Below, piece after piece: positions 1,977 to 28,966 of a DNA stretch of 64,000 nt. Below the pieces are notes generated by a model, which saw only the letters and a program-made list of their open reading frames with translations, was not told the DNA's origin and searched no databases. A program made the position numbers and the translations under genes. How positions within the stretch are numbered: the stretch's first letter is position 1; the number at the start of each line of letters is the position of its first letter. The stretch comes from Candidatus Latescibacterota bacterium (lineage in GTDB: Bacteria; Latescibacterota; CBDCVA01): assembly GCA_965222935.1 (NCBI GenBank), contig CBDCVA010000001.1, positions 196,093 to 260,092 of the forward strand, given 5' to 3'.

Positions 1977-3338
1977 ATGGAGTGGAAGATGAGTGAACAG
2001 AACGAAGTACGGGGTGATTTCGACATGCGATCCGCCCGTGAGCGGGCCATCCTGATCGCAGTGCGCAGCCCCGGTGGAACCGACGGTACGGCGCTCGACG
2101 AGCGGCTCGAAGAACTGGTGCTCCTGTGCAATACTGCGGGGGTCAACGTCGTTGGAAGGGTGGTTCAGGCGCGAGAGCGGCTCGATGCAGCTACTTACAT
2201 CGGGCGGGGCAAGGTGGAGGCGCTCGCGGCGTTGGTGAAAGATCGTAAGGCGGATGTCGCGGTCTTCGAGGGAGCGCTCAGTCCCAGCCAGGCGACCAAC
2301 CTGGAGAAGGCCCTCGCGTGCAAGGTTCTCGACCGGAGCGCCGTCATCCTTGATATCTTCGCTCGAAGGGCGCGCACTCGTGAGGCGAAGGTCCAGGTCG
2401 AGTTGGCGCAGCTCGAATATCTTTACCCGAGGCTGACCCGCCTGTGGGGCCATCTCTCCCGACAGGAGGGGGGCATCGGCACGCGGGGGCCCGGCGAGCG
2501 GCAGCTCGAAGTCGACCGGCGCGCGGTCCGCAAACGGATCGAAGGCCTGCGGCGTGCGCTCAAGCGCGTGGAGGGCCGTCGTGAGATCGCGCGGCGCGGC
2601 CGCGAGGGCTGCTTCTGCGCTGCGCTGGTGGGTTACACGAACGCGGGCAAGTCTACGCTCTTGAGCGCTCTGGCTGACCGCAGCGACGTTTTCATCGAGG
2701 GCCGTCTGTTCGCCACTCTGGACGCGACCACCCGCATCGCCTGGGTGCCCGGCCAGCGGAAGGTCCTTCTGTCCGATACCGTGGGTTTCATCCGCGACTT
2801 GCCGCCCCATCTGGTCGCTTCCTTCCGCAGTACGCTCGAGGAGGTGCGAGAGGCGGACCTGTTACTTCACGTCGTGGACGCCAGCCACCCCGCCGCGTCG
2901 CAGCAGATGGCGACGACCGACGCCACGCTGGAAGACCTCGGCGTGGCGGAGCACCCGACCCTCACGGTCCTCAACAAGATCGACCGTCTAGCGCCGGACG
3001 CCCCGGTCCTGGATGACCTCGCCGAAGGCCGGAAGGCCGTGCCCGTCTCCGCGATCCAAGGCATGGAACTGGAGGCGCTGCGCTGGGCCATCGCTGGGGC
3101 GCTCGACGCCGAGTCGGTGGAACTGGACCTGCGTATCCCACAGCGCGAGGGGGCTCTCGTGGCGGCCCTACACGGGGCGGGCGATGTGCTCGCGGTCAAC
3201 TACGAGGCCCAGGACGTGCTCGTCACGGCTCGGCTTCAGCGAGGGCGCGCCGAGGCCCTCAGGCTTTCTCGATGGACCACGGACTCCCATACGGTCCGGG
3301 AGGGTGCAGTCACAAGCGGAGTGGGCGATGCGAACTAG
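1977..3338 (+). CDS. hflX: GTPase HflX
   Basis: 453 aa; HflX N-domain plus G-domain (GYTNAGKSTLL, DTVGF, NKID); alternative start possible at 2025. Confidence 0.9.
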   Translation: MEWKMSEQNEVRGDFDMRSARERAILIAVRSPGGTDGTALDERLEELVLLCNTAGVNVVGRVVQARERLDAATYIGRGKVEALAALVKDRKADVAVFEGALSPSQATNLEKALACKVLDRSAVILDIFARRARTREAKVQVELAQLEYLYPRLTRLWGHLSRQEGGIGTRGPGERQLEVDRRAVRKRIEGLRRALKRVEGRREIARRGREGCFCAALVGYTNAGKSTLLSALADRSDVFIEGRLFATLDATTRIAWVPGQRKVLLSDTVGFIRDLPPHLVASFRSTLEEVREADLLLHVVDASHPAASQQMATTDATLEDLGVAEHPTLTVLNKIDRLAPDAPVLDDLAEGRKAVPVSAIQGMELEALRWAIAGALDAESVELDLRIPQREGALVAALHGAGDVLAVNYEAQDVLVTARLQRGRAEALRLSRWTTDSHTVREGAVTSGVGDAN

Positions 3339-5028
3339 CGCGAGGTGGGGAGGACGTCCGGCGCTTGGCCTCCCACTGCTCGCGGTTCTGGCGCTCGGTC
3401 TTGTGGGGGTGCAGGCGGCCTCCGCGGGGGGGCAGGTAGCTGCCAAGTGCGGGACGCCGCACGTCCTGGACGCAATGCGGCGGCTGGGGCCGGCGGCATT
3501 CGCCAAACGAGCACAGACGCCGAAGCAACGCCAGTACGACTCGCCAGGCGGCTTTTTCCGCATCCAGTACGATATGGAGGGTCGCGACGCGGTCTCGCAT
3601 GAGGACAGCGATCAGGACGGGGTCCCCGACTACGTGGAGGCCGCCGCTGAGGCCTTCGACCGAGCGCTCCAATTGGAGGTTTTTGAGCTCGGCTACCGCT
3701 CGCCGTTTGTGGGCGAGGAACGTGGTGACGAGCGGTACGAGGTCTTCATCCGCGATCTCGGCGCGCCCGGCTACTACGGACTGACTCACCCGCAGACCGG
3801 GCCAGACCGTGCCTTCACCAGCTTCATCGAGGTGGACAACGACTTCCTCGACCCGATCTACCCCACGAGGGGGCTGGATGGACTGCGCGTCACCGCCGCC
3901 CACGAGTTCTTCCACGCCATTCACTTCGCCTACTATCTGAACACGCGCCTCGACGCACTCTGGTGGATGGAGATCACCGCGACGTGGATGGAAGATGTGG
4001 CCTGGGATTCGATCAACGACTACTACCATTATGTCAGGCCACGGCGTGTGTCGCCCTCCTCCTTTTCCGACGCGTTCTTCGACGTGCCGGGTGCTCCGCT
4101 GGACCATACGAATGGGTATTACGAATATGGCGCGTCCGTCTTCGGACATTTCTTGGCGGCGCTTCATGGGCGTGACATCATCCGGGCCTGCTGGGAGGCC
4201 ATCGGTGAAGCTCAGCGCGGCGACGTGACCGTGATTGACGGCGTCCTGCCTGGAGGGATGGCCGCTGCCGTCCCCGAGTTCGCGGTCTGGAATTACTTCA
4301 CAGGTCCGCGCGCGCGCCCCAGCCAGTTCTATCCCGAGGGCTCGGCCTACGCCGAGGTATGGATCCCGCCCGGTCGGATTCACCATGCGTATCCTGTCTC
4401 CGGAAGCGGCACCGTGGATCACCTCGGCTCTCACCACACGCGCTTCATCGCACCGGACGAGCCGGCCACGCTGGTCTTAGACCTTGAGTTGGATCCTCGA
4501 ACCTCCTGGATGGTCCAGGTCGTGCGCATCACCGAGGGTCGCCCCACTATCGCGCCTCTGGACCCATCGATGCCGTTCCGCTTGACGACGGGACTTCTCG
4601 ACGAGGAGATCGTCCTGATCTCGACGGCGGTCAATCTTTATGGCCACGATTTCACGTACGTGTACAGCGCGCACCTCGACCTCACTCCGGTGGATGTCGG
4701 GGAGCCGACGGTGCTCGTCTGGCCCGGCGACACCAACAACGATGGCATCGTGGGCATCCGAGATGTGCTGCCTATCGGCATCTTCTGGGGAGCTGAGGGG
4801 CCGCCGCGCACGGACGGTGACATCTCTTGGTCCGCCAAGGGAATCCGTCCCTGGGAGGAGAGCCAGGCCGCGTTCGCCGACGCCAACGGCGATGGGATGG
4901 TTGACGCCCGCGATGTCGAGGCCGTCAGAGCCAACTGGAGCAGGGTCCGGCCGCGTGAGGGTGATGCGGCTGTAGCTAAACTCGCCCCGAATGCGCAGCG
5001 AGCGGCTGGGTCACCCTTGGAGCGATGA
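3327..5028 (+). CDS. Secreted zinc metalloprotease-like protein (HEFFHAIH motif) with C-terminal dockerin-like tandem Ca-binding repeats
   Basis: ATG at 3327 overlaps the hflX stop; signal peptide (LPLLAVLALGLVGVQAASAGG); HEXXH motif HEFFHAIHF; C-terminus carries two D-x-N-x-D-G-x5-D segments (DTNNDGIVGIRD, DANGDGMVDARD), typical of dockerin modules. The track ORF 3013-5028 has a spurious 5' extension. Confidence 0.7.
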
Positions 5029-5576
5029 GGCTTACGATGGAAGAATGGAGTCCTGGCCGGTGGGTGGCGGCGCTGCTCGTTGCCCTAGCCGCGCTTGGGC
5101 TCGTCTCGTGCGGAGGGGATGGGGGACCGACCGGTCCCGCCATTGGCCCCACTCCGGAGGGGCTCGTGCTGCGTCTGACGCCGCCCTCTCAGACCGTGAC
5201 CAAGGGGACGACTTTCAGCGCATCGGTGCACCTGTTCAACGCGCAGAGCGTCTTTGGCAGCGCCTTCGAGATCGGGTTTGATCCCTCGAAGCTGGAAGCC
5301 GTCGGCGCCGAATCGGGTCCGTTTCTGCCCGATGACCCCATCTTCTTCAGCTTCTTCGAGCCCGGTACCGCCTCGATAGCTGTCGTCCGCAAGGCGCCAG
5401 AGAGGGCGATCTCAGGCTCGGGCGAGCTGGCTCGCCTTGAGCTGCGCGCGCTGGCGCAGGGCGACGTCGAGTTGAGGTTCCGTCCCCAGATGACCGCGAT
5501 CGAGGACCCGACGGGCGCGCCGATTCCAGGGCGGGTTGATCTACAACACGAGGGGGCGGTGGTGATCGTCCAATGA
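5025..5576 (+). CDS. Cohesin-domain lipoprotein
   Basis: ATGA start/stop overlap with the upstream gene; lipoprotein signal (ALAALGLVSCGG); single ~140-aa domain with a cohesin-like beta-sandwich pattern (TVTKGTTFSASVHLFNAQSVFGSAFEIGFDPSKLEAVG ... GSGELARLELRALAQGDVELRF). Confidence 0.6.
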   Translation: MRLTMEEWSPGRWVAALLVALAALGLVSCGGDGGPTGPAIGPTPEGLVLRLTPPSQTVTKGTTFSASVHLFNAQSVFGSAFEIGFDPSKLEAVGAESGPFLPDDPIFFSFFEPGTASIAVVRKAPERAISGSGELARLELRALAQGDVELRFRPQMTAIEDPTGAPIPGRVDLQHEGAVVIVQ

Positions 5577-8377
5577 TCGTGCCGAGGCGCGGCGGGGCTT
5601 TTGGGTGGGTGGCCTGTGCTCTGGCAGTCCTCGGAACCCAGGGCGCGGTTCGGCCCGCTTGCGCCCAATTCTTCTTCGGCAAGAACAAAGTCCAGTACCG
5701 GACGTTCGACTGGCACATTCAGCGGACCGAACACTTCGACATCTACTTTTACCCTGAGGAGGCGGAGCTAGCCTCGATAGGCGCCGCTTACGCCGAGGCC
5801 GCCTACCGCGATCTGGAGCGCAAGTTCTCCTACACCGCGCGTGAGCGCATCCCCGTTATCTTCTACAGTTCGCCGCTTCACTTCCAGGGCACCAACACCA
5901 TCCTGGCCTTTCTACCCGAGAGCGTCGGGGGTTTCACCGAATTCGCCAGGGGCCGCGTCGTCGTGCCCTTCAATGGCTCGCTTTCCCGCTTCGAGCGCAT
6001 CATCCGCCACGAGCTCGTCCACGCCTTCATGCATCAGAAGCTCCGGGCCGTGCTCCGCCGCCATCGCATCCGTCGCGGTGCCCGCGCTCCGCTGTGGTTC
6101 TCCGAGGGGCTGGCCGAGCACTGGTCCGGTTCCCAGAACGCCCAGGGCGAGATGATCCTGCGCGACGCCGTTCTCACCGGGCACCTGGATGGACTGGACT
6201 ATTTGGCGCGGGTTGCGGGCACGTTCCAGATGTACAAGGCGGGCGAATCGCTGGTCGGGTGGATGGGTCGCACGCTCGGCGACGAAGTGCTGCTCGCGAT
6301 TCTGGAGGACTGGTGGAAGGCGGACGACTTTAGCACAGTCGTCGCCGCTGCGACGGGCCGGCCCTTAGGCGAACTGGCAGAAGCGTGGTGCTACGGGCTG
6401 AAGAAACGCGTCCTGCCGCTATTGGCCGACCACGATGAAGCCAGCCACGCAGCCAGACGCCTCACGGCGGTGGGCCTGGCCACGGGGCCGGAGGTCGTGC
6501 CCTCCTCGGTGATGGGCGATTCCGACCAGTTCCTGTTCTTTTCCAACTACCGGGGCTTCCCCGGCATCTACGTGGGCGAGGTTGGAGATAAGGACCAGGT
6601 CGGCCATGTCCTCCTCGAAGGCGCCCGCAGCGGATCGATGGAATCGCTCCACCTGCTCCAGACGGGGCTCTCGATCAGCAGCGACGGGCGGCTGGCCTTC
6701 GTCGCGAAGTCGGGCCCGCGCGATGTCCTGACCCTCTTCGACCTTGGGAGCCGGCGGGTCACCGCGCGCCTGGGCTTCCCCTCACTGGTGACGCTCCGCT
6801 CTCCATCGTGGTCGCCCGACGGCGGGCGGCTTGTTTTCAGTGGTGAGGGCCTAGACGGCTTCACCGACCTCTACGTTGTCACTGTGGAGAATGGTGCGCT
6901 GGAGCGTCTGACCGAAGATCTCTACAGCGACAGGAATCCCGCTTGGTCGCCCGACGGCAAGCGGATCGCTTTCGACTCCGACCGGCTTTCTTCGGGCACA
7001 ACCCGCCACGTCTTTGTTCTCGACGTCGCCACGGGGAGCGCCGAGCCTCTCGTGGGTGGCGCCGCGAACTTCGTCACACCCGTCTGGTCTCCCGATGGCT
7101 CCCGACTCGCCGTCGCCTCTGACCGTGATGGCACGTTTAACCTCTACCTCCTGGACCTTGACGGCCGTCTGGCGCGCGTCACTCGCGTGCTTACCGCCGC
7201 GCGTGATCCAGCGTGGCTGGAGGGCGGTGACGGTCTTCTGTTCACGGGTTACGAGGAGGGCCGAATGGAGGTCTATGCGGCAAGGATCGATTCCCTCGAG
7301 TGGGAGGCCCCTCTCCCACCCCTTGCGGCCGATTCGGGCTGGGAGCCGCCTAGCCTTGCAGGACCGTCGGCGGCGACGGTGTTTGCCTATGTGCCGCGTT
7401 TCGATCTCGACATCGCGCAGACGCAGATTGCGCAGGACGCGCAGTTCGGGGCCGTCGGCGGCCTGAACATTGCCATAAGCGACATGCTCGGCGACGATCG
7501 CTACTACTTCACCCTCGCCAGCGGCTCAAGCCGCAGTGCCACCGGCAGAGGCGGGATGAATATAGGTGTAACGCATGTCTCCCTGGGGCGGCGCACGGAC
7601 ATGGCCTTCGGCATCTTTCACCTGCATGGCGAGTTTGATGCTCCGGTTGAGGGCCTGTTCAGGGAGCGCCGTTTTGGTGGCTTCGTGATGGCATCGCGTC
7701 CGCTCTCCCGTTTTCAGCGCCTGGAGTTCCAGGGAACCTTTCGCCAGTCCGATCGCCGCTGGAAGGACGGCTCGGGCAGGGTCCGGCGGGCGCTCTTGCA
7801 CACGACGGGTGCCGCCTTCGTGCGCGACACGAGCTTGTGGAGCGCGACGGGTCCCATTGATGGCGATGGTCTGCGTGCGTCGGTGGCTCATACGATTGCT
7901 CTGGAATCGGCGAAGGTGCACTACCTCTCGCTGGAGCTGGACGTACGCCGCTATTTTCGCTTCACGCGCCGGGCTGCCGTAGCGACGCGCGGGCTTCTGC
8001 GCACGAGCCTTGGCCGTGAGCCCGAGCGCTTCGCCATGGGTGGAAGCTGGACGCTGAGAGGCTACCCTTGGCGCTCCATCGAAGGACGCTACCTGGGCCT
8101 ATGGACCAACGAGCTGCGCTTCCCGCTCGTTGATACCCTTGCGCTTCGACTACCCTTCGGCGGGTTGCGGATCGACTCCATTCGCGGCGCTCTTTTCGTC
8201 GATGCCGGGAGCGCCTGGGAGCGTGACCGGCCTGAGGTCCTAGGCAGCTTTGGCGGCGGCTTTCGCATCCGTTTAGGTCCGTTCCTCGTGCTGCGCTACG
8301 ACATCGCCAAGCGCGTGACCTCCGATGGCGTCTCGGGGCGGACCTTCACAGACCTCTTCTTTGGCTGGGATTTCTGA
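5573..8377 (+). CDS. Outer-membrane multidomain protein: N-terminal HEXXH peptidase-MA-like domain, PD40/TolB-like beta-propeller, C-terminal Omp85 (surface antigen D15) beta-barrel
   Basis: ATGA overlap with the upstream gene; signal peptide; HELVHAF motif; repeated WSPDG(K/G/S)R PD40 units; C-terminal Omp85 hallmarks (LRGY..., FVDAGSAW, GGGFRIRLGPF, terminal ...FFGWDF aromatic residue). Confidence 0.7.
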   Translation: MIVPRRGGAFGWVACALAVLGTQGAVRPACAQFFFGKNKVQYRTFDWHIQRTEHFDIYFYPEEAELASIGAAYAEAAYRDLERKFSYTARERIPVIFYSSPLHFQGTNTILAFLPESVGGFTEFARGRVVVPFNGSLSRFERIIRHELVHAFMHQKLRAVLRRHRIRRGARAPLWFSEGLAEHWSGSQNAQGEMILRDAVLTGHLDGLDYLARVAGTFQMYKAGESLVGWMGRTLGDEVLLAILEDWWKADDFSTVVAAATGRPLGELAEAWCYGLKKRVLPLLADHDEASHAARRLTAVGLATGPEVVPSSVMGDSDQFLFFSNYRGFPGIYVGEVGDKDQVGHVLLEGARSGSMESLHLLQTGLSISSDGRLAFVAKSGPRDVLTLFDLGSRRVTARLGFPSLVTLRSPSWSPDGGRLVFSGEGLDGFTDLYVVTVENGALERLTEDLYSDRNPAWSPDGKRIAFDSDRLSSGTTRHVFVLDVATGSAEPLVGGAANFVTPVWSPDGSRLAVASDRDGTFNLYLLDLDGRLARVTRVLTAARDPAWLEGGDGLLFTGYEEGRMEVYAARIDSLEWEAPLPPLAADSGWEPPSLAGPSAATVFAYVPRFDLDIAQTQIAQDAQFGAVGGLNIAISDMLGDDRYYFTLASGSSRSATGRGGMNIGVTHVSLGRRTDMAFGIFHLHGEFDAPVEGLFRERRFGGFVMASRPLSRFQRLEFQGTFRQSDRRWKDGSGRVRRALLHTTGAAFVRDTSLWSATGPIDGDGLRASVAHTIALESAKVHYLSLELDVRRYFRFTRRAAVATRGLLRTSLGREPERFAMGGSWTLRGYPWRSIEGRYLGLWTNELRFPLVDTLALRLPFGGLRIDSIRGALFVDAGSAWERDRPEVLGSFGGGFRIRLGPFLVLRYDIAKRVTSDGVSGRTFTDLFFGWDF

Positions 8378-8400: not shown

Positions 8401-9540
8401 GTGGCTGAAGTGCTCTGTCCCGAGCGTCGTTGGTCGAGGGGCGTACGGCTTACCCTAGTAGCCGCCGGATTTCTCGCTGGTTCCGGTTGTGCGCCTGCGG
8501 GATGGCGCTGCGCACCATCGGTGGGCGTGCCGGTCGGCTCCGCGTACGCCGTGGTGCCACCGCTGGTTCTGAAATGGCGCCAGGACGTGGGTATCAGCGT
8601 GACCGCGCCGCTTCGCCTCGCCGATGGCCTGCTTTTCGTCGGGACAGGCGATGGTAGGCTCAAGGTGTTGGATGCTGCAACGGGCCACAAGTGCGGAGAA
8701 CTGCTCGTTCGCGGCGCGGCGGCGCGTGCGGCGCCTGGGGTGGCAGCGGCGCACCTGATCGTCGTTTGGTCCAATGCCGGGGAGAGCGTACGCGGAGTGG
8801 ACCGGCGTACGGGCGTGCAGATGTGGAGCCACGACGTCGGCGACTGCTCCGCGACGCCGGTCGTCGCTCGTGGTTACGCGGTCGTTGTCGGGGAATCGGG
8901 TCAGGTTCTGGCCGTCGATCTGGCAACGGGTGAGCAGGTGTGGCGCGCAACCGTTGGGGGCCAGGTGCGGTCCGCTGTGGCCGGCGCCGAGGGCGTCGTG
9001 ATCGTCGGGGATAGAAGTGCGCTTCGCGCTTTCGCTCTGGAGGGCGGCGATCCAAAGTGGCGCATCGAACTGGGAGCAGCGGTGAGCTCTCGCATCGCCG
9101 TCCTGGGCGATGTCGCCTTTGTTGCGACGGCGGCCGGGGAGCTGTGGTCGGTGGAGATCGGGACGGGCGCGCGGCGCTGGGGCGTACGGGTCGCCGAGGC
9201 CGCCATCCGGTCGGGCCCCGTGGTGATCGGGTCGTCTGTCATCATTGGCGCCGACGACCGGCGGGTCGTGACGCTCGATGCGGCGACGGGGAACGTGGTG
9301 TGGGATGCCGGCACGGACGGGGTTGTGCGTGGGGCCCCGGTGGCTGATGGGGATGTCGTCTATGTCGCCGCCGGCGACGGAAGCCTTATAGCGTTGGCTC
9401 TGGATGATGGCCGCAGGCTCTGGGAGACGCGGCTCTCGGCACCGGCACTGACCGATCTGGCGCTGGGCCATGGCGGGCTTTTCGCAGGCGCGGACGACGG
9501 CAACGTCTACTGCTTCGATGTCGGGGCCGGGGTTCCTTGA
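8401..9540 (+). CDS. PQQ-repeat beta-propeller lipoprotein (BamB-like)
   Basis: GTG start; lipobox-like LAGSGC; multiple PQQ-type repeats (VWR..., WSHDVGD..., VVWDAG...). Confidence 0.65.
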   Translation: MAEVLCPERRWSRGVRLTLVAAGFLAGSGCAPAGWRCAPSVGVPVGSAYAVVPPLVLKWRQDVGISVTAPLRLADGLLFVGTGDGRLKVLDAATGHKCGELLVRGAAARAAPGVAAAHLIVVWSNAGESVRGVDRRTGVQMWSHDVGDCSATPVVARGYAVVVGESGQVLAVDLATGEQVWRATVGGQVRSAVAGAEGVVIVGDRSALRAFALEGGDPKWRIELGAAVSSRIAVLGDVAFVATAAGELWSVEIGTGARRWGVRVAEAAIRSGPVVIGSSVIIGADDRRVVTLDAATGNVVWDAGTDGVVRGAPVADGDVVYVAAGDGSLIALALDDGRRLWETRLSAPALTDLALGHGGLFAGADDGNVYCFDVGAGVP

Positions 9541-10492: not shown

Positions 10493-11326
10493 GTGCCCAT
10501 TCCTACGGTGCGGCAGCCCGACTCAGTGCTTCTACGGCGCGGCGTGGCAGGCGCTTTGCTCGTCGCAGTGGTCGCGTGGGCAGCCGTGCGGGGCGGGCTG
10601 TTTTTCCTGGTTCTGCTCGACCTCATCCTGGCTGGAGCGGCGCTCGAACTGATCGCCCTTACGGGGCTTCGCCCGGCCCTATGGCATCGCGTCGCGCTCG
10701 TCGCTCTGGCGCTCATGCCAGGGTGGCTTTGGGTGACCGGCACGGCGTTGGAGCTGGGACTGGGGTTGACGGTCCTCGGTGCTCTGGTCCTGGCTCTTGT
10801 CACCGCGCCGCACGATGGCCTCCGTTCGGCGGGCGCTCACCTGCTCGTCGTCGCCTACGTCGGCTGGCTGGGAGGGTTGTTGGTGGGTCTGCGGTGGGAA
10901 GACCCTGCGTCGCCGGGAGAGAACACCATCCTTTTTACCTTCGTGGTGCTCTGGACGAGCGACACGGTCGCTTATCTGGTCGGGAGCAAGTTTGGTAAAC
11001 ACAAGCTCACGCCCCGTCTCAGCCCTGGTAAATCGGTCGAGGGCCTCGTGAGTGGATTCGTGGGCGCTTGGCTTGTGGCGGGCCTCTGGTGTTTCGCCGT
11101 TCCGGGCGCCGCTACGCTCGCCTACTGGTGGGGGCTTGCTACGCTGCTTGCTGCTGCCGGGTTCGTGGGCGATCTGTTTGAATCGGGCCTCAAACGCGCT
11201 GCGGGGGTCAAGGACACCTCCAACGTGATCCCCGGCCATGGAGGCCTGCTCGATCGCTTCGACTCCGCGCTCTTCGCGGCGCCGGCCCTTGCGTGCTGGC
11301 GCGCCTGGCTTGGAGTGCCTGGATGA
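10493..11326 (+). CDS. cdsA: Phosphatidate cytidylyltransferase
   Basis: Polytopic membrane protein; C-terminal CdsA signature (SxxKRxxxVKDxSxxIPGHGGxLDRxDS). Confidence 0.85.
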   Translation: MPIPTVRQPDSVLLRRGVAGALLVAVVAWAAVRGGLFFLVLLDLILAGAALELIALTGLRPALWHRVALVALALMPGWLWVTGTALELGLGLTVLGALVLALVTAPHDGLRSAGAHLLVVAYVGWLGGLLVGLRWEDPASPGENTILFTFVVLWTSDTVAYLVGSKFGKHKLTPRLSPGKSVEGLVSGFVGAWLVAGLWCFAVPGAATLAYWWGLATLLAAAGFVGDLFESGLKRAAGVKDTSNVIPGHGGLLDRFDSALFAAPALACWRAWLGVPG

Positions 11327-12504
11327 AGCGCTTGGTGATTTTGGGGTCCACGGGCTCCATCGGCACGCAGACGCTGGAGGTGGTCCGGGCGCTGGCTCCT
11401 TCTTCGATATCCATCGTTGGGCTAGCCGCTAGGCGCAATGTGACGGCACTTGTTGCGCAGGCGCGCGAGTTTCGCCCCAAGGTGGTGGCGGTGGCGGACG
11501 AAGCCAGTGCCGCCGCTGCCGCCGCTGCACTTCGGCCGTTGGGTATCACCGTCTGTTCTGGTCCTGCGGGGGTTGAAGCCGCCGCAGCGGAGGCCGAGGC
11601 GGACCTCGTCGTCAACGCGCTGACGGGTTCTGACGGCCTCGCGCCTACGGTGGCCGCGATTGAGGCCGGGTGTGACGTGGCGCTGGCGAATAAGGAGACG
11701 GTCGTCATGGCCGGGCGGTATGTCCTCGGCCTCGCGCGGCGTCGGGGCGTGACGATCCTTCCCGTAGACAGCGAACACTCCTCCCTCTTTCAGCTCCTCG
11801 CTGGCCGCGACCCCGGTGAGGTGAGCCGGCTCATTCTGACGGCCTCCGGCGGTCCATTCGTGGATGTCGACGCGGATGCGCTTGCGCATGTGACCGTAGA
11901 GGCGGCGTTACAACACCCCGTCTGGGACATGGGCGACAGGATCACGATCGATTCCGCGACGCTCATGAACAAGGGGCTCGAAGTCATCGAAGCGCGCTGG
12001 CTCTTCGATATCCCAAGCGACCGTATTGACGTCGTGGTCCATCGCCAGTCGGTCGTTCATGGCATGGTCGGGTTGACTGACGGGACTTGCATGGCGCACC
12101 TGGGTGTTCCGGATATGCGCGCTCCGATCCAGTACGCGCTGACGTATCCCTTCCGCGAGCCGTCGCTAGCCGCTCGCCTGGACATGCACACTCAGCTTTC
12201 TCTGACTTTCGAACGGCCTGATCTTGCGCGTTTTCCGTGTCTCCGCCTGGCGTACGAGGCGTTGCGCGCCGGGGGTACAACGCCAGCCTGCCTCAACGCG
12301 GCCAACGAAGTGGCTGTGGGAGCTTTCCTGGTGGAGCGTTTGCCCTTTCTGGGAATCCCCGCCGTGGTCGAGCGCGTTCTGGAGGCGCACCAGCCGATGC
12401 CGGATGACGAGCTGGGGATCATCCGAATGGCCGACCGCTGGGCGCGCGAGCGTGCGCTCGAGGCCGTCGCGTCGAGCGCCAACGCCGCTGTGTCGGTGGG
12501 TTGA
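11323..12504 (+). CDS. dxr: 1-deoxy-D-xylulose 5-phosphate reductoisomerase
   Basis: Start MKRLVILGSTGSIGTQTLEVV (NADPH-binding); the track ORF begins 30 nt upstream at an in-frame Met. Confidence 0.9.
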   Translation: MKRLVILGSTGSIGTQTLEVVRALAPSSISIVGLAARRNVTALVAQAREFRPKVVAVADEASAAAAAAALRPLGITVCSGPAGVEAAAAEAEADLVVNALTGSDGLAPTVAAIEAGCDVALANKETVVMAGRYVLGLARRRGVTILPVDSEHSSLFQLLAGRDPGEVSRLILTASGGPFVDVDADALAHVTVEAALQHPVWDMGDRITIDSATLMNKGLEVIEARWLFDIPSDRIDVVVHRQSVVHGMVGLTDGTCMAHLGVPDMRAPIQYALTYPFREPSLAARLDMHTQLSLTFERPDLARFPCLRLAYEALRAGGTTPACLNAANEVAVGAFLVERLPFLGIPAVVERVLEAHQPMPDDELGIIRMADRWARERALEAVASSANAAVSVG

Positions 12505-13817
12505 ACGTGCTGGCGTCACTCCAGACCATCGCGGGCTTCGTTCTCATCCTGGGGCCTCTCATTTTCGTCCACGAGTTGGGCCATTTCCTGGCCGCGAAAT
12601 GGGCCGGCATTCGCGTCGAGCGCTTCTCTCTCGGCTATCCGCCCAAGATGTTCGGCATCACCATAGGCGTGACGGAGTACTGTATCTCCTGGATCCCCTT
12701 CGGCGGCTACATCAAGATGGCCGGCGGTTCCTTCGAAACAGGCATTGCCACGGGCGCTCCCGACGAGTTCGCTTCCAAACCCATCGCCGCTCGTCTCGCC
12801 GTTCTGGCGGCGGGTCCGTTGGCGAACATCTTCATCGCGTTTGCTCTTTTCTTTTTCATGGCCGTGGCGTTTGGTGCGCCGACTTATTCCACCACACGCC
12901 TCGGCACCGTGGAGCCCGGTTCGCCCGCCGAACGCGCGGGCCTACGGACTGGCGACCGGATCGTCGCGGTTGGGGGCGAGGCCGTTGTGGACTGGGAGGA
13001 ACTGGCTAAGGGGCTGATGATGGCCTATGCCGAGCCCGTGATGCTGCTGACTGAGCGGGAGGGAGAGCGGCTGGAGATGCTGATCCCGGCGGTTAGCGGC
13101 GACGAACCCTTCGGGATTGAGCCCTGGATTCCGGCGGAGATCGGACGCCTCGAACCCGGAGAGCCAGCGGAGGGGGCGGGCCTAAGGCCAGGTGACCTCA
13201 TCGTCGAGGTGGCGGGTGAACCCATTGCGCAGTGGCGCGACCTCTACGAGGCCGTGCGAGAGCGGCCGGAGTTTCCCACGTCCGTCGTGTGGCGGCGTGG
13301 CGATCAGCAGTTGAGCACGGAAATTGTGCCGCGGGCTTTCAAGGTACCCGGAGAAGCCGACGGAGAGGAAAGGGTAGTGGGCCGCCTGGGTGTCTACCCT
13401 ATGCTGGAGATTAAGCGCGTCGGTCCGATCTCGGGTCTGGTCGTGGCGGGACAGCAGACTTACCTGATATCGTCTCTGATCCTGGATTTCCTCCACCGCG
13501 CGCTCACGGGCAGGGCGTCGAAGGAGGAACTGAGCGGCCCGGTCATGATCATCCGCATGGCTGGCGAGAGCGTGCGCGGAGGGTTTACGTCGCTCTTGAG
13601 CTTCATCGCTTTGCTCGGCGTCAACCTCGGGCTGCTCAACCTCTTCCCGCTTCCCGTCCTGGACGGCGGCCAGATGGTCATCCTTGGCGCTGAAGCCGCC
13701 ATCCGGCGCCCATTTTCGCTGCGCGTGAGGCTGGTCATCCAGCAGGTCGGGCTTGCGTTTCTAGTCCTGCTCATGTTGCTCGTTACAGTCAACGACGTAG
13801 TGCGTCTGTTCAACTAG
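12501..13817 (+). CDS. rseP: RIP metalloprotease RseP (site-2 protease)
   Basis: HELGHFLAA HEXXH in TM1, PDZ domains, LDGG motif near the C-terminus; overlaps the dxr stop. Confidence 0.9.
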   Translation: MNVLASLQTIAGFVLILGPLIFVHELGHFLAAKWAGIRVERFSLGYPPKMFGITIGVTEYCISWIPFGGYIKMAGGSFETGIATGAPDEFASKPIAARLAVLAAGPLANIFIAFALFFFMAVAFGAPTYSTTRLGTVEPGSPAERAGLRTGDRIVAVGGEAVVDWEELAKGLMMAYAEPVMLLTEREGERLEMLIPAVSGDEPFGIEPWIPAEIGRLEPGEPAEGAGLRPGDLIVEVAGEPIAQWRDLYEAVRERPEFPTSVVWRRGDQQLSTEIVPRAFKVPGEADGEERVVGRLGVYPMLEIKRVGPISGLVVAGQQTYLISSLILDFLHRALTGRASKEELSGPVMIIRMAGESVRGGFTSLLSFIALLGVNLGLLNLFPLPVLDGGQMVILGAEAAIRRPFSLRVRLVIQQVGLAFLVLLMLLVTVNDVVRLFN

Positions 13818-13849
13818 CTCGAACCCCGACAGCGCAGAAGAAACGCCTC

Positions 13850-14278
13850 TCACGGCACCGGAGCCGCATGGGTCGGCTCCGGCCCCGGTATGGAGAACGA
13901 CCGCCGGGCGGCGGCCACGCGCAGCTCATCGCGCACCCTCGCTAGAATGTGCTCCCAGCGCTGGGGATCCTCCCCCACGTGCTCCAACGCGCGCCAGACC
14001 TCCGGCATTGAGCGGGCCACTTCGCCGAAGAGCCGCTCGTGCTCCGCCTTCATCTGACCGGGCACGGTCGCGTAGTCGGACGTGGCGAGCAGGGCTTTTG
14101 CCAATAGAAGTGCCAGCACCTCGTCGCTCATGGAGAAGGGCTCACAGCAGGCGATACAGGCCGCCATAAGGGGTCCCAGAAGCGCACTCATGCGCCACGA
14201 ACTGCTCACACGATAGGTGAATATAATGGCACTAACCCCATTAAAGAATACACTATACCTCAAAACTCCTCTTGACAA
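13850..14278 (-). CDS. Hypothetical protein
   Basis: 142-aa ORF convergent with rseP, no recognisable motif; its real start may be an internal Met. Confidence 0.3.
   Translation of the reverse strand: MSRGVLRYSVFFNGVSAIIFTYRVSSSWRMSALLGPLMAACIACCEPFSMSDEVLALLLAKALLATSDYATVPGQMKAEHERLFGEVARSMPEVWRALEHVGEDPQRWEHILARVRDELRVAAARRSFSIPGPEPTHAAPVP
13858..13882. terminator. Strong GC hairpin (ccggagccg-catgggt-cggctccgg) between convergent rseP and a minus-strand ORF
   Basis: Perfect 9-bp inverted repeat seen in sequence; no clear T-tract. Confidence 0.3.
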
Positions 14279-14505: not shown

Positions 14506-14943
14506 ATGTCGACCTTCTACGGCGAGTTCGAATATACAATAGATGAGAAAGGCCGGCTCAATGTTCCCACGGAACTGCGGCGCGGCCTGGAACCGGAAGC
14601 TGGGGAAAGCCTCGTTATCACGCGCGGTTACGACGGCCACTTGATCGCCTACGGCATCGACGACTGGAGCCACAAGCAGGAAGCGATCCGCAAACTGCCC
14701 ATGGGCGACCCCCGCGCGCGCAACATCAAACGTCTGTTCGGATCGCGCGCCACTGTCCAGCGATTGGACGGCCAGGGGCGCATTCGCATCTCACAGCAGT
14801 TGCTCGAATCTGTCGGCATTCAAGACCGGGTCAAGATCGTGGGCACGGTCGATTGCTTCGAGTTGTGGAACCCCCAGCACTATGACGATCAAATGTCCAA
14901 GGTCGACTTCGGGGGCCAGGACCTGAGCGATTTCATCCTGTAA
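14506..14943 (+). CDS. mraZ: Division/cell wall cluster transcriptional regulator MraZ
   Basis: Two MraZ/AbrB-like repeats (FYGEFEYTIDEKGRLNVP; GQGRIRISQQL). Confidence 0.9.
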   Translation: MSTFYGEFEYTIDEKGRLNVPTELRRGLEPEAGESLVITRGYDGHLIAYGIDDWSHKQEAIRKLPMGDPRARNIKRLFGSRATVQRLDGQGRIRISQQLLESVGIQDRVKIVGTVDCFELWNPQHYDDQMSKVDFGGQDLSDFIL

Positions 14944-14952
14944 CGGCACGCC

Positions 14953-15885
14953 ATGCCCACCATCTACCATATGCCTGTCCTGTGCGAGCGCGTCGTGACG
15001 ACGCTCGCGCGGTTTTCCGAGGGCGTCTACGTCGATGCGACCGTCGGCGGTGGTGGACATGCGGCGGCGCTCCTGGATGGGCTCGGCCCCGGAGCGCGGC
15101 TCGTCGCCATCGATCGCGATCCAGAGGCCATCGAAGCCGCCCACGAACGCCTGGCTCCGTACGGTGATCGGGTGCGCTTGTTCTGCACGACGTTTTCGAG
15201 ACTCGGAGAGGCAGTCGCCGAGACGGGCTTTGGTCCCGTCCACGGCGTGCTGTTCGATCTCGGCGTTTCCTGGTACCAGCTTGATGCCGCTGAGCGTGGT
15301 TTCAGTCACCGGCTCCCGGGGCCCCTGGATATGCGCATGGACCCTTCGCAGGCAGTGCCCGCGCAGGAGATAGTGGCTGGTGCGCCGGAGGATGAGCTTA
15401 CTGCGTTGCTCCGCGGTTACGGTGAGGTCCCACATGCACGACGCGTCGCCAGGCGGATCATTGCCGCCCGCCGGGAACGGCCCATCCGGACGACGCAGGA
15501 CCTCGCGGCCCTGATCGGACCGCTCGTCGCTCCAGCGGTGCAGGTCCGCTATCTCTCGCAGGTCTTTCAGGCGCTGCGCATCGCAGTCAACGACGAGCTC
15601 GGCGAGCTCGAGCGAGGCCTAGTCGCAGCGCTCGGTTGCCTGGCTCCAGGTGGGATTCTGGGAGTGATCGCGTACCATTCGCTTGAGGATCGCTTGGTTA
15701 AGCGTTTCTTCCGCGTTGAGGAGAGCGGCTGCATCTGTCCGCCCGATCTGCCGGTTTGCGCTTGTGGGCAGCGCCCGACGCTGCGCCTTGTGACGCGGCG
15801 GGTGATCCGGCCGTCGGAGGTGGAGGTGGCACATAACACGAGGGCTCGCAGCGCGTGTTTTCGGGCGGCGCAGCGGCGGGGTTGA
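14953..15885 (+). CDS. rsmH: 16S rRNA (cytosine1402-N4)-methyltransferase
   Basis: YVDATVGGGGHA SAM-binding motif and MraW family conservation. Confidence 0.9.
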   Translation: MPTIYHMPVLCERVVTTLARFSEGVYVDATVGGGGHAAALLDGLGPGARLVAIDRDPEAIEAAHERLAPYGDRVRLFCTTFSRLGEAVAETGFGPVHGVLFDLGVSWYQLDAAERGFSHRLPGPLDMRMDPSQAVPAQEIVAGAPEDELTALLRGYGEVPHARRVARRIIAARRERPIRTTQDLAALIGPLVAPAVQVRYLSQVFQALRIAVNDELGELERGLVAALGCLAPGGILGVIAYHSLEDRLVKRFFRVEESGCICPPDLPVCACGQRPTLRLVTRRVIRPSEVEVAHNTRARSACFRAAQRRG

Positions 15886-15960
15886 TGTGCGCAAGGGAAT
15901 CTCGGCTGAGAGGCGATTCCAGGTCGAAAGAGCGGCGGCGGCGCTCATAAGGGGGAGACA

Positions 15961-16242
15961 ATGTCCGCGCGGGTTGGTCTGATTCTGCTCTTCGTCAGTG
16001 TGGTGGCGATGCTTGCACACGTCTGGGGGCTGACCCGGTTGGTCGAGATGACCCAGCAGCGCGCGCGTTTAAGCGCTCGTGTGGATTCGCTGGAGAGCGC
16101 AAACAGCCACCTGCGGGCTGAAGTGGGGCAACTGGCCTCGGCCGACCGCGTTGAGCGCTTGGCCAAATCGCGCCTGGGCCTGGACTTTAAGAGCACGGAG
16201 ATCCGCGCAGTGCAAGTTTTGGTGCCCGCGGAGGAGCGGTAG
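15961..16242 (+). CDS. ftsL: Cell division protein FtsL-like
   Basis: 93 aa; N-terminal TM helix followed by coiled-coil; canonical position between rsmH and ftsI. Confidence 0.6.
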   Translation: MSARVGLILLFVSVVAMLAHVWGLTRLVEMTQQRARLSARVDSLESANSHLRAEVGQLASADRVERLAKSRLGLDFKSTEIRAVQVLVPAEER

Positions 16243-16267
16243 ACCCCTCGTCGCTGTGGGGAGGCAC

Positions 16268-18052
16268 ATGGAACCGGAGACGCTGAAGCTCGCCATCCGG
16301 GGGCGCCGACGCTTTCACGCTCTGATGGTTGGCTTTGTTGTCCTGTGGACTGGCCTTGCGCTGCGTCTATTCCTGCTTCAGGTCATGGATGGGCCACACT
16401 ACCGGGGGCTCGCGCAGAGACAACAGCAGAAGCGACAGAGGCTTCTTGCGCGTCGCGGCCGCATCCTGGACCGGCACTTGACTCCGCTGGTCGACAACGT
16501 TCTGGCGCGCCGCGTTGGAGCCGACCCTCGGAAGCTCAATGTACCCAAGGCTGTGCCGGTCATCACGGCCATCACGGGAGAGGACTCCGGGCTCCTACGC
16601 CAGCGGCTGGCGACACGATCGCCATTCGTCTGGTTAGCGCGTGGGGTGACGCCCGAGCAGGCGCGCGCACTGTCCGATGTTTCCGACTCGCCGATGCGCG
16701 TGGAGGTCGAGGTACAAAGGCATTATCCGCTGGGCGCTCTGGCGGGCTCGGTGATAGGGTTCACGGATGTGGATGGCGAGGGGATCGAAGGGATTGAGGC
16801 TGCCTTTGACGCCCAACTGGCCGGGCGCGACGCGTGGCGCGTAGTTCAACGGAACGGCGCCACCGGCGAGGTCTTCGCCTCAGTGGCGGACGGTGACGAA
16901 TCACCGCGCGATGGGGACGATATAGTCGTGACGCTTGATGCGCGCTACCAGGCCATCGTCGAAGCTGAGCTGGCTGCGACCGTGCGCGAGCACGACGCGC
17001 GGGGTGGAGTGGCGGTATTCCTGGCGCCGGCCACGGGCGAGATCCTCGCTATGGCGCAGGTGCCCAACGTGCATCCGTCCGCCTTTGAGCTTGCCTCATC
17101 CCGAGCGCGCCGCAACCGCTCGATCACCGATGGTTACGAACCGGGGTCGACCTTCAAGCTGGTAACGGCTGCGGCGGCTCTGGAGAGCGGCCGCTTCGGC
17201 CCTTCGACCCTCGTAGATTGCCACGGCGGACAACTGACCGTGGGTGGAGATGTCTTTCACGACCACCACCCTCTCTATGAACTCAGCTTTCAGGAGGTCT
17301 TCGCTCAGTCGAGCAACCTGGGCATGATCAGCGCCGCTCTCAAGGTCGGGGCACGTCCATTCTATCTGACGGCCCGCCAGTTCGGTTTTGGCCACGAGAC
17401 TGGCCTGGGTCTGCCCGGTGAGGCGAAGGGCATCCTGCGTGAGCCAACGGCCTGGTCAGCGCGCTCACTGCCCAGCCTGGCCATCGGGCAGGAGGTGCTG
17501 GTCACGCCACTACAGTTGGCTTGCGCATACGCCGTGGCTGCCAATGGGGGGAAGCTGGTTCCACCCAGGATCGTGCGCTACTTCCTGAGCTCGGACGGCG
17601 GGGTTCGTGACCCATTACCGTCGGCGGTGGGCAGGCGGGTCATCTCAGAGGCTACCGCACGTGAACTTCTGGCGTTCATGCGGACGTGCGTGGCGTCGGG
17701 TACGGGGCGCTCTGCGCAGGTGGAGGGGCTTGCCGTCGGTGGGAAGACCGGAACTGCCCAGAAAAGCGCCCCGGGCCGTAGGGGCTATCTTAAGAACGAA
17801 GTCGTGGTTTCATTCGTGGGAATTTGTCCGCTGGAGGCTCCTCGCATGGTGGGGCTGGTCGTCATCGACGAACCGCGGGGACGCGCATGGGGCGGCACGG
17901 TGGCGGCTCCGGCCTTTCGCCGCATGGTGCGACGGATGTTCGCACTCGATGGTGCTGTGCACGCGCGCGCGGTCGATAGCGTCTCCCCGGTCTCCGAGGG
18001 CGAGATCAGCCGGGATAGGCGCAGTGGGTGGTTGGCATCGAGTATGTTGTGA
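16268..18052 (+). CDS. ftsI: Peptidoglycan D,D-transpeptidase FtsI (class B PBP)
   Basis: Start MEPETLKL at ATG 16268; TM anchor; STFK, SSN and KTGT active-site motifs. The track ORF 16079 has a spurious 5' extension overlapping ftsL. Confidence 0.85.
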   Translation: MEPETLKLAIRGRRRFHALMVGFVVLWTGLALRLFLLQVMDGPHYRGLAQRQQQKRQRLLARRGRILDRHLTPLVDNVLARRVGADPRKLNVPKAVPVITAITGEDSGLLRQRLATRSPFVWLARGVTPEQARALSDVSDSPMRVEVEVQRHYPLGALAGSVIGFTDVDGEGIEGIEAAFDAQLAGRDAWRVVQRNGATGEVFASVADGDESPRDGDDIVVTLDARYQAIVEAELAATVREHDARGGVAVFLAPATGEILAMAQVPNVHPSAFELASSRARRNRSITDGYEPGSTFKLVTAAAALESGRFGPSTLVDCHGGQLTVGGDVFHDHHPLYELSFQEVFAQSSNLGMISAALKVGARPFYLTARQFGFGHETGLGLPGEAKGILREPTAWSARSLPSLAIGQEVLVTPLQLACAYAVAANGGKLVPPRIVRYFLSSDGGVRDPLPSAVGRRVISEATARELLAFMRTCVASGTGRSAQVEGLAVGGKTGTAQKSAPGRRGYLKNEVVVSFVGICPLEAPRMVGLVVIDEPRGRAWGGTVAAPAFRRMVRRMFALDGAVHARAVDSVSPVSEGEISRDRRSGWLASSML

Positions 18053-18418
18053 GGCGAAGAACTCTGAGGGAAAGATGCGTCTTGGTGAAGGTTCGTGCCC
18101 GGGATGTGCGCCGGACGCTGGCTACGGTGGCCAGCAGGTTTCTAGGGAATCCGATGCCACAGCACGGGTCATTCAGAGCCGGGGGGGCCGATGGTTGGGC
18201 GTCGGTCAGTCATATGGGCGCGCCTGTCCTAAAGGCGGGGGACGGCGCAACGTCCGGAGATTGACTGTGACGCATGATGGGTCTCCGCGCAGCCCGGTTC
18301 TACGACTCGTTCTCCCGAGGGTCACGAGCCTTCACCGGTTTCAGTTACCGCGCTCGGTGCGTTCGCTGCGCACACCCGGGCGCGGTAACGCATTTTTGAT
18401 GAGGTCCCGCAGCTAACG

Positions 18419-19882: not shown

Positions 19883-19913
19883 GCTCGTGTCTCCGGAGGC
19901 AGCGTAGAAAGCG

Positions 19914-20999
19914 ATGCTCTACCACTTGCTGTACCCTTTGCGCGATGTCTTTTCTGCTTTCAACATATTCCGGTACATTACTTTCCGAGCTACCTATGCC
20001 ACCATCACGGCGCTTCTGATCTGCTTTGTCGTTGGGCCCATGATCATCGCCTGGCTGCGTCGTTCCGCGGTGACCCAGGTCATCCGGGCTGACGGTCCCG
20101 AGTCCCACCAGGCCAAGGTGGGCACGCCCACCATGGGCGGGCTGATCATTCTGTTGGCGGTGGTCGTCTCCACGATCTTATGGGCTCCGCTGAACAATGG
20201 CTATGTGCTTCTGGCGCTTTTGGCGATGGTCTGGCTGGGTGCCCTGGGCTTCATCGACGATACCCTCAAGATACGCACCGCTGGCGGTAGGGGGTTGGCG
20301 CCGCGCTACAAGCTCGCCGCACAGGGCGCCTTGGGCGTTGTGATCGGGACGATCCTGTACGTTCACCCTCTGGCTCCTGAGTTCGGCACTCAAACCAGTG
20401 TGCCTTTTTTCAAGGACGTTCACATCCATTTCCACTGGTTTTACATCCCCGCCGTGGCGCTAGTCATCACCGGGGCATCCAATGCCGTCAACCTCACCGA
20501 TGGCCTTGACGGTCTGGCCATTGGCCTGGTCGGGATTGTCACCAGCGCTTTCGCCTTGATCTGCTACGTCACCGGCCGGTCTACCTCCAGCGAGTACCTG
20601 CGCATCGACTATCTACCTGGCTCGGGCGAGCTGACCATCTTCTGCATGGCGCTTTTGGGTGCCAGCTTGGGGTTTTTGTGGTTCAACGCCAGACCGGCGC
20701 AGGTCATGATGGGCGACACGGGCGCGCTCGCTCTAGGCGGCGCCATTGGTACCCTCGCCGTGCTCTCGAAGATGGAACTTGTGCTTGTGATCATCGGCGG
20801 TGTCTTCGTCATCGAAGCGCTATCGGTGATCGCTCAGGTCCTGTCCTTCCGTTACCGTCACAAGCGGGTCCTCCGCATGGCTCCCTTGCACCACCATTTC
20901 GAGCTCTGCGGCTGGCCCGAATCGAAGGTCGTCATACGGTTCTGGATTCTGGGCGTGCTCTTTGCGCTTCTAGGGCTTTCCACCTTCAAGATTCGATGA
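19914..20999 (+). CDS. mraY: Phospho-N-acetylmuramoyl-pentapeptide transferase
   Basis: 10-TM protein with MraY motifs (NAVNLTDGLDGLA, HHHFE). Confidence 0.9.
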   Translation: MLYHLLYPLRDVFSAFNIFRYITFRATYATITALLICFVVGPMIIAWLRRSAVTQVIRADGPESHQAKVGTPTMGGLIILLAVVVSTILWAPLNNGYVLLALLAMVWLGALGFIDDTLKIRTAGGRGLAPRYKLAAQGALGVVIGTILYVHPLAPEFGTQTSVPFFKDVHIHFHWFYIPAVALVITGASNAVNLTDGLDGLAIGLVGIVTSAFALICYVTGRSTSSEYLRIDYLPGSGELTIFCMALLGASLGFLWFNARPAQVMMGDTGALALGGAIGTLAVLSKMELVLVIIGGVFVIEALSVIAQVLSFRYRHKRVLRMAPLHHHFELCGWPESKVVIRFWILGVLFALLGLSTFKIR

Positions 21000-24722: not shown

Positions 24723-24728
24723 GCCGAG

Positions 24729-26452: not shown

Positions 26453-26468
26453 TCTTTAACCGCGCAAG

Positions 26469-28942: not shown

Positions 28943-28951
28943 GGGGGAGGC

Positions 28952-28965: not shown

Positions 28966-28966
28966 G

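Follow-up and report, generated by a model that had tools for sequence, protein, structure and literature searches.

The gene at positions 5573 to 8377 of the 64,000-nucleotide stretch of Candidatus Latescibacterota DNA analysed here (assembly GCA_965222935.1, contig CBDCVA010000001.1, positions 196,093 to 260,092; the whole stretch is termed the window) encodes a 934-residue protein that joins an HEXXH metallopeptidase domain, a PD40 β-propeller and an Omp85-type β-barrel. The protein is a new, divergent member of the known WD40-like Omp85 subfamily, whose architecture has thus been described before, and together with the BamB-like lipoprotein gene that follows it, it forms a tight two-gene unit across several phyla. 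It is proposed, with a probability of roughly one half, to be an accessory Omp85 paralogue, distinct from the cell's BamA, that would act as a periplasmic zinc endopeptidase in concert with the BamB-like lipoprotein. The features of the two genes are as follows.

5573..8377, + strand: whole gene of the 934-residue peptidase-propeller-Omp85 protein, ATG start (open reading frame list and translation)
5573..5665, + strand: Sec-type signal peptide, residues 1-31, predicted cut ACA/Q32 (sequence reading)
5666..5713, + strand: mature N-terminus Q-FFFGKNKVQY...W, residues 32-47 (top-conserved segment)
5714..6457, + strand: gluzincin (clan MA) metallopeptidase catalytic domain, residues 48-295
6008..6022, + strand: HELVH zinc-binding/catalytic motif, H146, E147 and H150 (invariant in 57 aligned homologues)
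6095..6124, + strand: WFSEGLAEHW helix with the putative third zinc ligand E178 (alignment)
6470..7288, + strand: TolB-like PD40 β-propeller, six-bladed, residues 300-572
7289..7375, + strand: linker without secondary structure, poorly conserved, no POTRA, residues 573-601 (model and alignment)
7376..8374, + strand: Omp85-type β-barrel, residues 602-934, 16 strands counted on the model
8039..8065, + strand: loop-6 motif GGSWTLRGY, residues 823-831, Omp85 (V/I)RG(Y/F) signature (alignment)
8195..8209, + strand: FVDAG, residues 875-879, Omp85 FxDxG motif of strand 13 (alignment)
8357..8374, + strand: C-terminal FFGWDF, terminal aromatic residue, β-signal-like (alignment)
8401..9540, + strand: BamB-like, putatively eight-bladed (PQQ_2-type) propeller lipoprotein, the conserved operon partner (Pfam and NCBIfam profiles)

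The gene represents a genuine, complete coding sequence. Public assemblies contain an identical protein (P0122) and another with 99% identity (P0001), on contigs of 0.75 to 4.2 Mb, and, since full-length homologues with 38-45% identity occur in several phyla, the reading frame is not a chance one. Base composition is uniform over the region (G+C of 0.63-0.68), thus giving no sign of a foreign island, and a scan of the locus for promoters and terminators revealed nothing above chance. Read by eye from the sequence, the signal peptide displays an RR n-region, a hydrophobic core and an AxA site, with AxA-Q as the consensus of the family. An AlphaFold2 model built on 57 sequences (mean predicted local distance difference test score (pLDDT) of 85.4, predicted template-modelling score of 0.85) comprises a mixed α/β segment at residues 48-295, approximately six blades at residues 303-571 and a barrel extending from about residues 602-610 to residue 932. 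The model and the profile scans together bear out the layout given in the original prediction, which was read from the letters of the window and described an Omp85 barrel fused to an HEXXH domain and a PD40 propeller, with no POTRA domains.

In the peptidase domain, the HELVHAF motif occupies residues 146-152. An alignment of 57 homologues, which share approximately 42% identity with the query, revealed that H146, E147, L148, H150, W175, E178, G179, A181 and E182 are invariant. A motif survey of 218 full-length relatives, with peptidase-domain identities as low as 33%, identified HExxH in every member and the composite HExxH plus Glu motif in 200, the spacing between H150 and E178 being 28 residues in 167 of them. 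The Pfam profile Peptidase_MA_2 (PF13485) aligns to residues 93-273 of the window protein with 13.4 bits (cut-off 32.4, E of 0.069) and is matched by 51 of 52 relatives at E<=0.01 (best value 1.3e-13). An NCBIfam flagellinolysin-type HExxH match lies at residues 139-263, and weak matches to Pfam Peptidase_M9 were observed in 9 of the 52 family members. A search of PDB sequences with the peptidase domain gave a marginal match to the collagenase ColT (E of 0.5), in which HELVH...WFSEGLAEHW aligns over HEFTH...WFEEGSAEF. Fold comparison revealed that the nearest structural relatives of the domain are M30 lugdulysin and the M9 collagenases, which are secreted enzymes, although identity to the catalytic domains of M9 collagenases and M30 hyicolysin/lugdulysin is only 12-14% and the activator, PKD and collagen-binding modules of these enzymes are absent from the window protein.

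The HEXXH motif, the Glu on a downstream helix and the thermolysin-like catalytic fold are all present, and the domain is a gluzincin fold whose zinc site, judged from its sequence, appears intact. Since this site is invariant, the proteins of the family are very probably active proteases. A weak point foreseen for the original prediction, that the HEXXH region might lack a third zinc ligand or a conserved fold, did not materialise, E178 being invariant in the alignment and a gluzincin fold being recovered by fold comparison. When used alone as query, the peptidase domain retrieved 375 clusters (50% identity level) at E<=1e-30 and 1,344 at E<=1e-10. Among the matches listed, the domain begins right behind the signal peptide almost always, and approximately two thirds of the proteins are 895-1,321 residues long, most of the shorter ones resembling fragments; from these start positions and lengths, the domain occurs mainly in the peptidase-propeller-barrel architecture.

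The central domain matches Pfam PD40 with an E of 3.8e-21 over three scoring stretches, and the NCBIfam TolB-propeller model aligns to residues 373-573. TolB, which also displays a six-bladed PD40 propeller, is the best sequence match and is among the strongest structural matches, but its N-terminal domain is missing from the window protein, and the TolB equivalog TIGR02800 scores 111 bits against a cut-off of 343, over the propeller region alone. No tol-pal genes were found beside the locus. The propeller of TolB binds Pal, and the propellers of S9 and tricorn peptidases gate oligopeptide access, restricting it to unfolded chains.

In the C-terminal third, Pfam Omp85 (PF01103) was matched by residues 765-915 (34.7 bits, cut-off 24). 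Across the 52 members of the Pfam survey, PD40 was identified in 52, Peptidase_MA_2 in 51, Omp85 in 45, ShlB in 12 and POTRA in none; the POTRA families of Pfam gave no match to the window protein at E<=1 and none to the 52 members at E<=0.01, and residues 572-601, which connect propeller and barrel, form neither helix nor strand in the model. The barrel comprises 16 strands by count on the model, the first of them in a low-confidence stretch, and the long loop 6 sits between strands 11 and 12, as in BamA. Alignment with hhalign superposed residues 616-930 on residues 441-804 of E. coli BamA (b0177), and the alignment with TamA was equally good over the last third. In these alignments GGSWTLRGY corresponds to GGSSTVRGF of E. 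coli BamA and GGDRSIRGY of TamA, and FVDAG corresponds to FWDMG and FVDSG, respectively. Among the 57 aligned homologues, G823, G824, S825, W826 and R829 of the loop-6 motif, D877 of the strand-13 motif and F930 and G931 of the C-terminus are invariant, and G830, F875, G879, F929 and W932 are at least 90% conserved; an aromatic residue terminates 214 of the 218 full-length members. The hallmarks of BamA and TamA that had been noticed in the C-terminus, including the terminal aromatic residue of ...FFGWDF, are thus confirmed, in the loop-6 LRGY (residues 828-831), FVDAG and the terminal Phe.

Fold comparison with the whole model groups the barrel with BamA, TamA and Sam50, with TpsB proteins slightly lower (FhaC 19.7, CdiB 18.1-18.6). 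BamA and TamA were found by Foldseek and by the family-profile search of PDB sequences, neither of which returned a TpsB protein; the concern that the barrel might cluster with unrelated porins found no support, none being among the matches listed. Levels of similarity to the individual clades were low: the BamA equivalog TIGR03303, which comprises five POTRA domains and a barrel, scores 22 bits against a cut-off of 297, in an alignment restricted to the barrel, and TamA NF047950, with three POTRA domains, scores 9.3 bits against 625, the gene downstream encoding a propeller lipoprotein and not tamB. The protein does not belong with the TpsB/ShlB-type transporters, which are marked by an above-threshold ShlB-type (PF03865) barrel, a POTRA_2 domain and a TpsA cargo gene alongside. 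The barrel is a genuine Omp85 barrel of the same type as BamA, TamA and Sam50 and can be placed in neither the BamA nor the TamA clade.

Conservation, expressed as the mean top-residue frequency per segment, is 0.80 in the mature N-terminus (QxYYFGKNKVQY), 0.68 in the peptidase, 0.68 in the pre-barrel segment that contains the first strand (residues 602-640), 0.64 in the barrel, 0.58 in the propeller and 0.29 in the linker, where W590 is the sole invariant residue. The peptidase is thus the best-conserved large domain. Since the barrel and its first-strand region are about as conserved as the enzyme, the barrel would be more than an anchor, and this pattern of residue conservation suggests a role beyond anchoring. 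The most conserved stretch of the protein comprises mature residues 1-16 (residues 32-47; consensus Q-YYFGKNKVQYxxFxW); residues 25-37 are modelled at a pLDDT below 50 despite the conservation of the mature N-terminus, which might act as a plug, as a pro-segment or as a strand that binds a partner.

The product of the gene at 8401..9540 matches Pfam PQQ_2 ('BamB') with an E of 5.7e-39 (134.6 bits against 27.6) and NCBIfam BamB (TIGR03300) with 132.7 bits against a cut-off of 285.2; the latter score being under the cut-off, the protein is described as BamB-like and not as an orthologue. The likely lipobox Cys is residue 30 of the reading frame, and translation may in fact begin at the GTG at 8443. 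At L001, a locus from a near-identical genome of the window's species, the public call of the BamB-like protein (12949-13968, 339 residues) begins past the lipoprotein signal peptide and lipobox Cys present in the longer reading frame (...VRLTLVAAGFLAGSGC...), and the database start is probably too short.

The pairing of the two genes was followed in 77 informative loci, which derive from other organisms and contain at least 1 kb of DNA downstream. In 75 of these 77, spanning Latescibacterota, Zixibacteria, KSB1, Ignavibacteria/Bacteroidota, Calditrichota, Gemmatimonadaceae and Kryptonia, the gene is followed immediately by a co-oriented BamB-like homologue. The median gap between the two genes is -1 nt, so that stop and start codons often overlap. 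The sole exceptions are L062 and L077, where more than 4 kb of downstream sequence contains no BamB-like gene detectable at E<=1e-5. A lipobox Cys was identified in at least 65 of the 75 partner homologues and is followed by basic or hydrophobic residues (consensus [SAG][GS][LI][RK][LIV]), with D/E at positions +2 to +5 in 3 of 65. Acidic residues behind the Cys constitute the surface-export signal of Bacteroidota lipoproteins, and a partner without this motif therefore fits the periplasmic side. The literature search found no report of the pairing of a WD40-like Omp85 protein with a BamB-like lipoprotein. The next gene after the lipoprotein gene encodes, in 47 of 82 loci, a protein of approximately 263 residues with two PEGA domains and a hydrophobic C-terminus (for example 11986-12786 in L003 and 13937-14728 in L080). 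This protein, of which the window contains no homologue, is a candidate third component of the module.

A word-indexed search returned more than 4,000 matches to the window protein, of which the best 120 are all full length with 39-45% identity, save P0001 (99%). The names among these 120 are 'BamA/TamA family outer membrane protein' or 'PD40 domain-containing protein', from Bacteroidota or Gemmatimonadota. A genome scan, with one genome per species, located relatives in at least 573 species-representative genomes, the best 80 of which belong to Latescibacterota, Zixibacteria, KSB1, Ignavibacteria/Bacteroidota, Calditrichota, Gemmatimonadaceae and Kryptonia and are mostly of the FCB group. The MraY encoded in the window displays at most 66% identity to others, its best named matches (60-66%) being from Latescibacteria, Zixibacteria, KSB1 and Calditrichaeota, and the organism belongs to a deep lineage of the FCB group, of which no close relative has been sequenced.

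The subfamily to which the protein belongs was defined by Heinz & Lithgow 2014 (Front Microbiol 5:370; PMC4104836), who divided the Omp85/TpsB superfamily into ten subfamilies, one of them 'WD40-like' (PF07676 plus PF01103), and likened the WD40-like proteins to a BamA-BamB fusion. In their Table S3, TolB is the best propeller template of each WD40-like member tested, the 'best aminopeptidase hit' is an M1 aminopeptidase, collagenase or tricorn structure, and the members include Caldithrix, Rhodothermus, Chloroherpeton, Sorangium and Echinicola. The definition given there is bioinformatic only, with no gene-neighbourhood analysis, and the main text contains no active-site analysis (PMC4104836). 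The window protein presents the same architecture, with an aminopeptidase/collagenase-like region first, then PD40 and a PF01103 barrel, without POTRA and with TolB as propeller template; no structural difference from the subfamily was found, and identity to its other members is 38-45%. Novelty of this architecture does not hold, since it was catalogued in 2014 (PMC4104836) and NCBI labels such proteins 'BamA/TamA family outer membrane protein'; the outcome that the original prediction had named as counting against it, a widespread known family, is what was found, in at least 573 genomes. More recently, Hanson et al. 2024 noted that the metalloprotease, WD40-like and patatin-like subfamilies 'have not been well characterized', and another 2024 paper mentions 'divergent WD40 and peptidase domains'. 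A second paralogue, truncated by the end of the locus and comprising a PD40 repeat and an Omp85-like C-terminus, was observed in L039 (69-1643, + strand), 8 kb upstream of the main copy; this pair echoes the two WD40-like copies of Rhodothermus marinus in Table S3 (PMC4104836).

The genes surrounding the pair in the window are the following.

654-1712: M42 peptidase
1977-3338: HflX
3328-5028, + strand: MXAN_6640-type HExxH protease with dockerin, 566 residues
5025-5576, + strand: cohesin protein, 183 residues
9624-10454: uppS
10493-11326: cdsA
11293-12504: dxr
12501-13817: rseP
from 14506: mraZ, mraW and the division/cell-wall cluster

The original prediction rested in part on a bamA-like neighbourhood. 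Its statement that bamA follows a uppS-cdsA-rseP run in E. coli agrees with the gene order there, which was checked and is dxr-ispU-cdsA-rseP-bamA-skp. Its statement that the trio lies immediately downstream in the window stands in part: uppS, cdsA and rseP are downstream, but the BamB-like gene (8401-9540) intervenes before uppS, and dxr lies between cdsA and rseP. The orientation also differs, since E. coli bamA comes after rseP and the present gene comes before uppS. The claim that the window contains no canonical BamA was upheld: a tblastn search with E. coli BamA gave no match over the 64 kb, and the reading frames of at least 600 residues encode only the dockerin protein, the protein under study, FtsI, a 2-oxoacid:ferredoxin oxidoreductase subunit, LptD and PriA.

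Synteny was assessed by tblastn of the window neighbours against 84 loci, 82 of them from other organisms. Homologues of uppS, cdsA, dxr, rseP, the cohesin, the dockerin protease and the M42 peptidase were found near the gene in L001 only, and a homologue of HflX in one further locus. None of the 82 loci of other organisms contains a homologue of uppS, cdsA, dxr or rseP, and with this the neighbourhood argument falls; the run was rejected as a feature of the family. Its linkage in the window's species alone is lineage-specific and the adjacency is probably coincidental, and may arise because the organism clusters several envelope-biogenesis genes. A complete mraZ-mraW-ftsI-mur-ftsA/Z division and cell-wall cluster extends over 14506-29000, and a further envelope-related run comprises a cyclophilin (51886-52815), a rhomboid-like protease (52823-53650) and LptD (54689-57061).

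The cohesin and dockerin neighbours were similarly rejected as partners of the family and are lineage-specific. The putative metalloprotease at 3328-5028 is matched by the NCBIfam model of the MXAN_6640 family (210 bits, cut-off 140) and by Pfam Dockerin_1, and the stop codon of the cohesin gene overlaps the start of the gene under study (ATGA). A protease assembly based on cohesin and dockerin is possible in this Gram-negative candidate-phylum organism.

If the protein is an accessory paralogue acting as a periplasmic endopeptidase, it would be exported through Sec, its signal peptide would be cleaved and its C-terminal third would fold as an Omp85 barrel with the loop-6 RGY/FxDxG lock intact. 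The peptidase and the propeller would remain in the periplasm, tethered beneath the barrel, because the N-terminus of an Omp85 barrel begins on the periplasmic side. The lipoprotein would be a physical partner, serving as a scaffold or adaptor as BamB does for BamA. The substrates of the enzyme would then be envelope polypeptides in an unfolded or extended state, which it would cleave as an endopeptidase on the periplasmic face of the outer membrane, with the propeller as a binding or gating module; activity on extended chains is expected because the M30 and M9 relatives are endopeptidases and the propellers of S9 and tricorn enzymes admit unfolded chains. The task may be quality control or processing of outer-membrane proteins (OMPs) or lipoproteins, in a BepA-like manner, and the degradation of misassembled OMPs or processing of surface proteins that had been put forward for the gene is a reasonable hypothesis. 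Accessory status is argued by the lack of POTRA together with BamA and TamA equivalog scores far under their cut-offs, and by the presence of the family in phyla including Bacteroidota, with the canonical BamA of F. johnsoniae among the PDB matches.

Three known systems frame this proposal. BamA contains POTRA domains, which are bound by BamB in E. coli (PMC13067283), in contrast with the peptidase and PD40 propeller found here. In the patatin-like PlpD (type Vd), as in the window protein, a hydrolytic enzyme precedes an Omp85 barrel, and the enzyme domain of PlpD is exclusively periplasmic, the Omp85 scaffold being reused for a non-assembly function (PMC11116518); PlpD differs in possessing one POTRA domain, a lipase instead of a peptidase and no propeller, and in being a homodimer. 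BepA, a periplasmic zinc protease that acts at the β-barrel assembly machinery (BAM) and degrades stalled OMPs (PMC13067283), is a possible functional analogue as a zinc protease at an Omp85 machine, although it is a separate soluble M48 protein, whereas the window protein is barrel-fused and of the M9/M30/M1-like gluzincin type.

Several observations weigh against the proposal of a periplasmic endopeptidase. The window protein itself falls under the Pfam threshold for Peptidase_MA_2. The periplasmic topology, which is the most probable one, is drawn by analogy from the topology of Omp85 proteins and from PlpD, and quality control or processing is the most specific part of the proposal and the least certain. 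The literature search found no functional study of any WD40-like Omp85 member. Translational coupling to the cohesin gene, with a dockerin-bearing HExxH protease upstream, is more typical of cell-surface assemblies, and this context hints at a surface assembly in the lineage of the window.

The coupling to the cohesin gene belongs to the case for a self-exported surface protease, whose barrel would move its own peptidase and propeller outward, as first proposed for PlpD (type Vd secretion), and which would degrade external proteins for nutrition or process surface proteins. This would agree with the fusion of an enzyme N-terminally to an Omp85 barrel, with the unstructured linker of approximately 30 residues ahead of the barrel, with the secreted M30 lugdulysin and M9 collagenases as closest peptidase folds, and with the co-directional, overlapping run that includes the cohesin protein and the dockerin protease. 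The PlpD precedent was, however, overturned when its enzyme domain was found to be periplasmic (PMC11116518). In addition, passage of some 540 residues, a folded six-bladed propeller among them, would be required through a barrel whose lumen contains a conserved loop-6 plug motif, the conserved lipoprotein lacks an acidic surface-export signal, and cohesin and dockerin neighbours occur in none of the 82 loci of other organisms; self-export is thus considered unlikely. Conservation of the barrel to the level of the enzyme, with its loop-6 and strand-13 signatures and β-signal-like C-terminus, would also suit a non-proteolytic assembly factor, namely an insertase resembling BamA whose POTRA domains are replaced by the propeller and the BamB-like lipoprotein and whose HExxH domain acts solely in binding or as a chaperone. 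The conserved BamB-like partner fits such a factor, and the suggestion has been published (PMC4104836), but no POTRA domain is present, and neither the three zinc ligands nor the catalytic Glu vary between phyla. Such constancy, in the most conserved large domain, is unexpected for a pseudoenzyme, and this reading is improbable.

A peptidase that remains in the periplasm may nevertheless stand outside OMP biogenesis. The barrel would then be an anchor, the TolB-like propeller would dock a Pal/OmpA-type or peptidoglycan-associated partner, and the enzyme would trim envelope lipoproteins, cell-wall-linked proteins or imported peptides. The likeness to the Pal-binding propeller of TolB, the PEGA-domain envelope protein encoded after the lipoprotein gene in 47 of 82 loci and the gating of oligopeptide access in S9 and tricorn propeller-peptidase arrangements are consistent with this. 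It is doubtful, however, since a pure anchor needs neither Omp85 functional motifs nor a conserved pre-barrel and first-strand segment (0.68), and Tol-Pal genes are not linked to the locus. Finally, the gene would be very improbable as the main, essential BamA of the organism, with POTRA exchanged for other periplasmic modules. The absence of a canonical BamA from the window and the adjoining uppS-cdsA-dxr-rseP run would fit, but the 64 kb cover little of the genome and the same protein lies on assembled contigs of 0.75 to 4.2 Mb, the synteny is not kept in the 82 loci of other organisms, the BamA equivalog reaches 22 bits against 297, some genomes contain two paralogues of the family, and the family is present in Bacteroidota, a phylum represented among the PDB matches by the canonical BamA structure of F. 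johnsoniae.

A more specific form of the accessory-endopeptidase proposal is that a BamA-like lateral gate takes the β-signal strands of stalled or unassembled OMPs, aided by the BamB-like lipoprotein, and feeds them through the propeller to the protease of the same chain. This is speculative and has a small chance of being correct. If true, it would constitute a 'degradative BAM' that clears failed barrels in FCB-group bacteria, an unreported two-component module and a new functional class of Omp85 machine.

To our knowledge, the Omp85 proteins studied to date all serve to insert or translocate proteins. The WD40-like subfamily is among the branches still uncharacterised and was named in 2024 as a target for study (PMC11116518). 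To its published description the present analysis adds three features that were not found in the literature searched, namely the invariant zinc site, a constraint on the barrel equal to that on the enzyme and the near-constant linkage to a BamB-like lipoprotein gene. Together they provide a concrete two-protein module for expression, modelling and knockout, with cultivable carriers in Rhodothermus, Caldithrix, Chloroherpeton, Echinicola and the myxobacteria. For this window alone, the gene represents one more member of a catalogued family; for the family, a device for OMP quality control, if that is what the module is, would occupy a BepA-like niche across a wide section of the bacterial tree.

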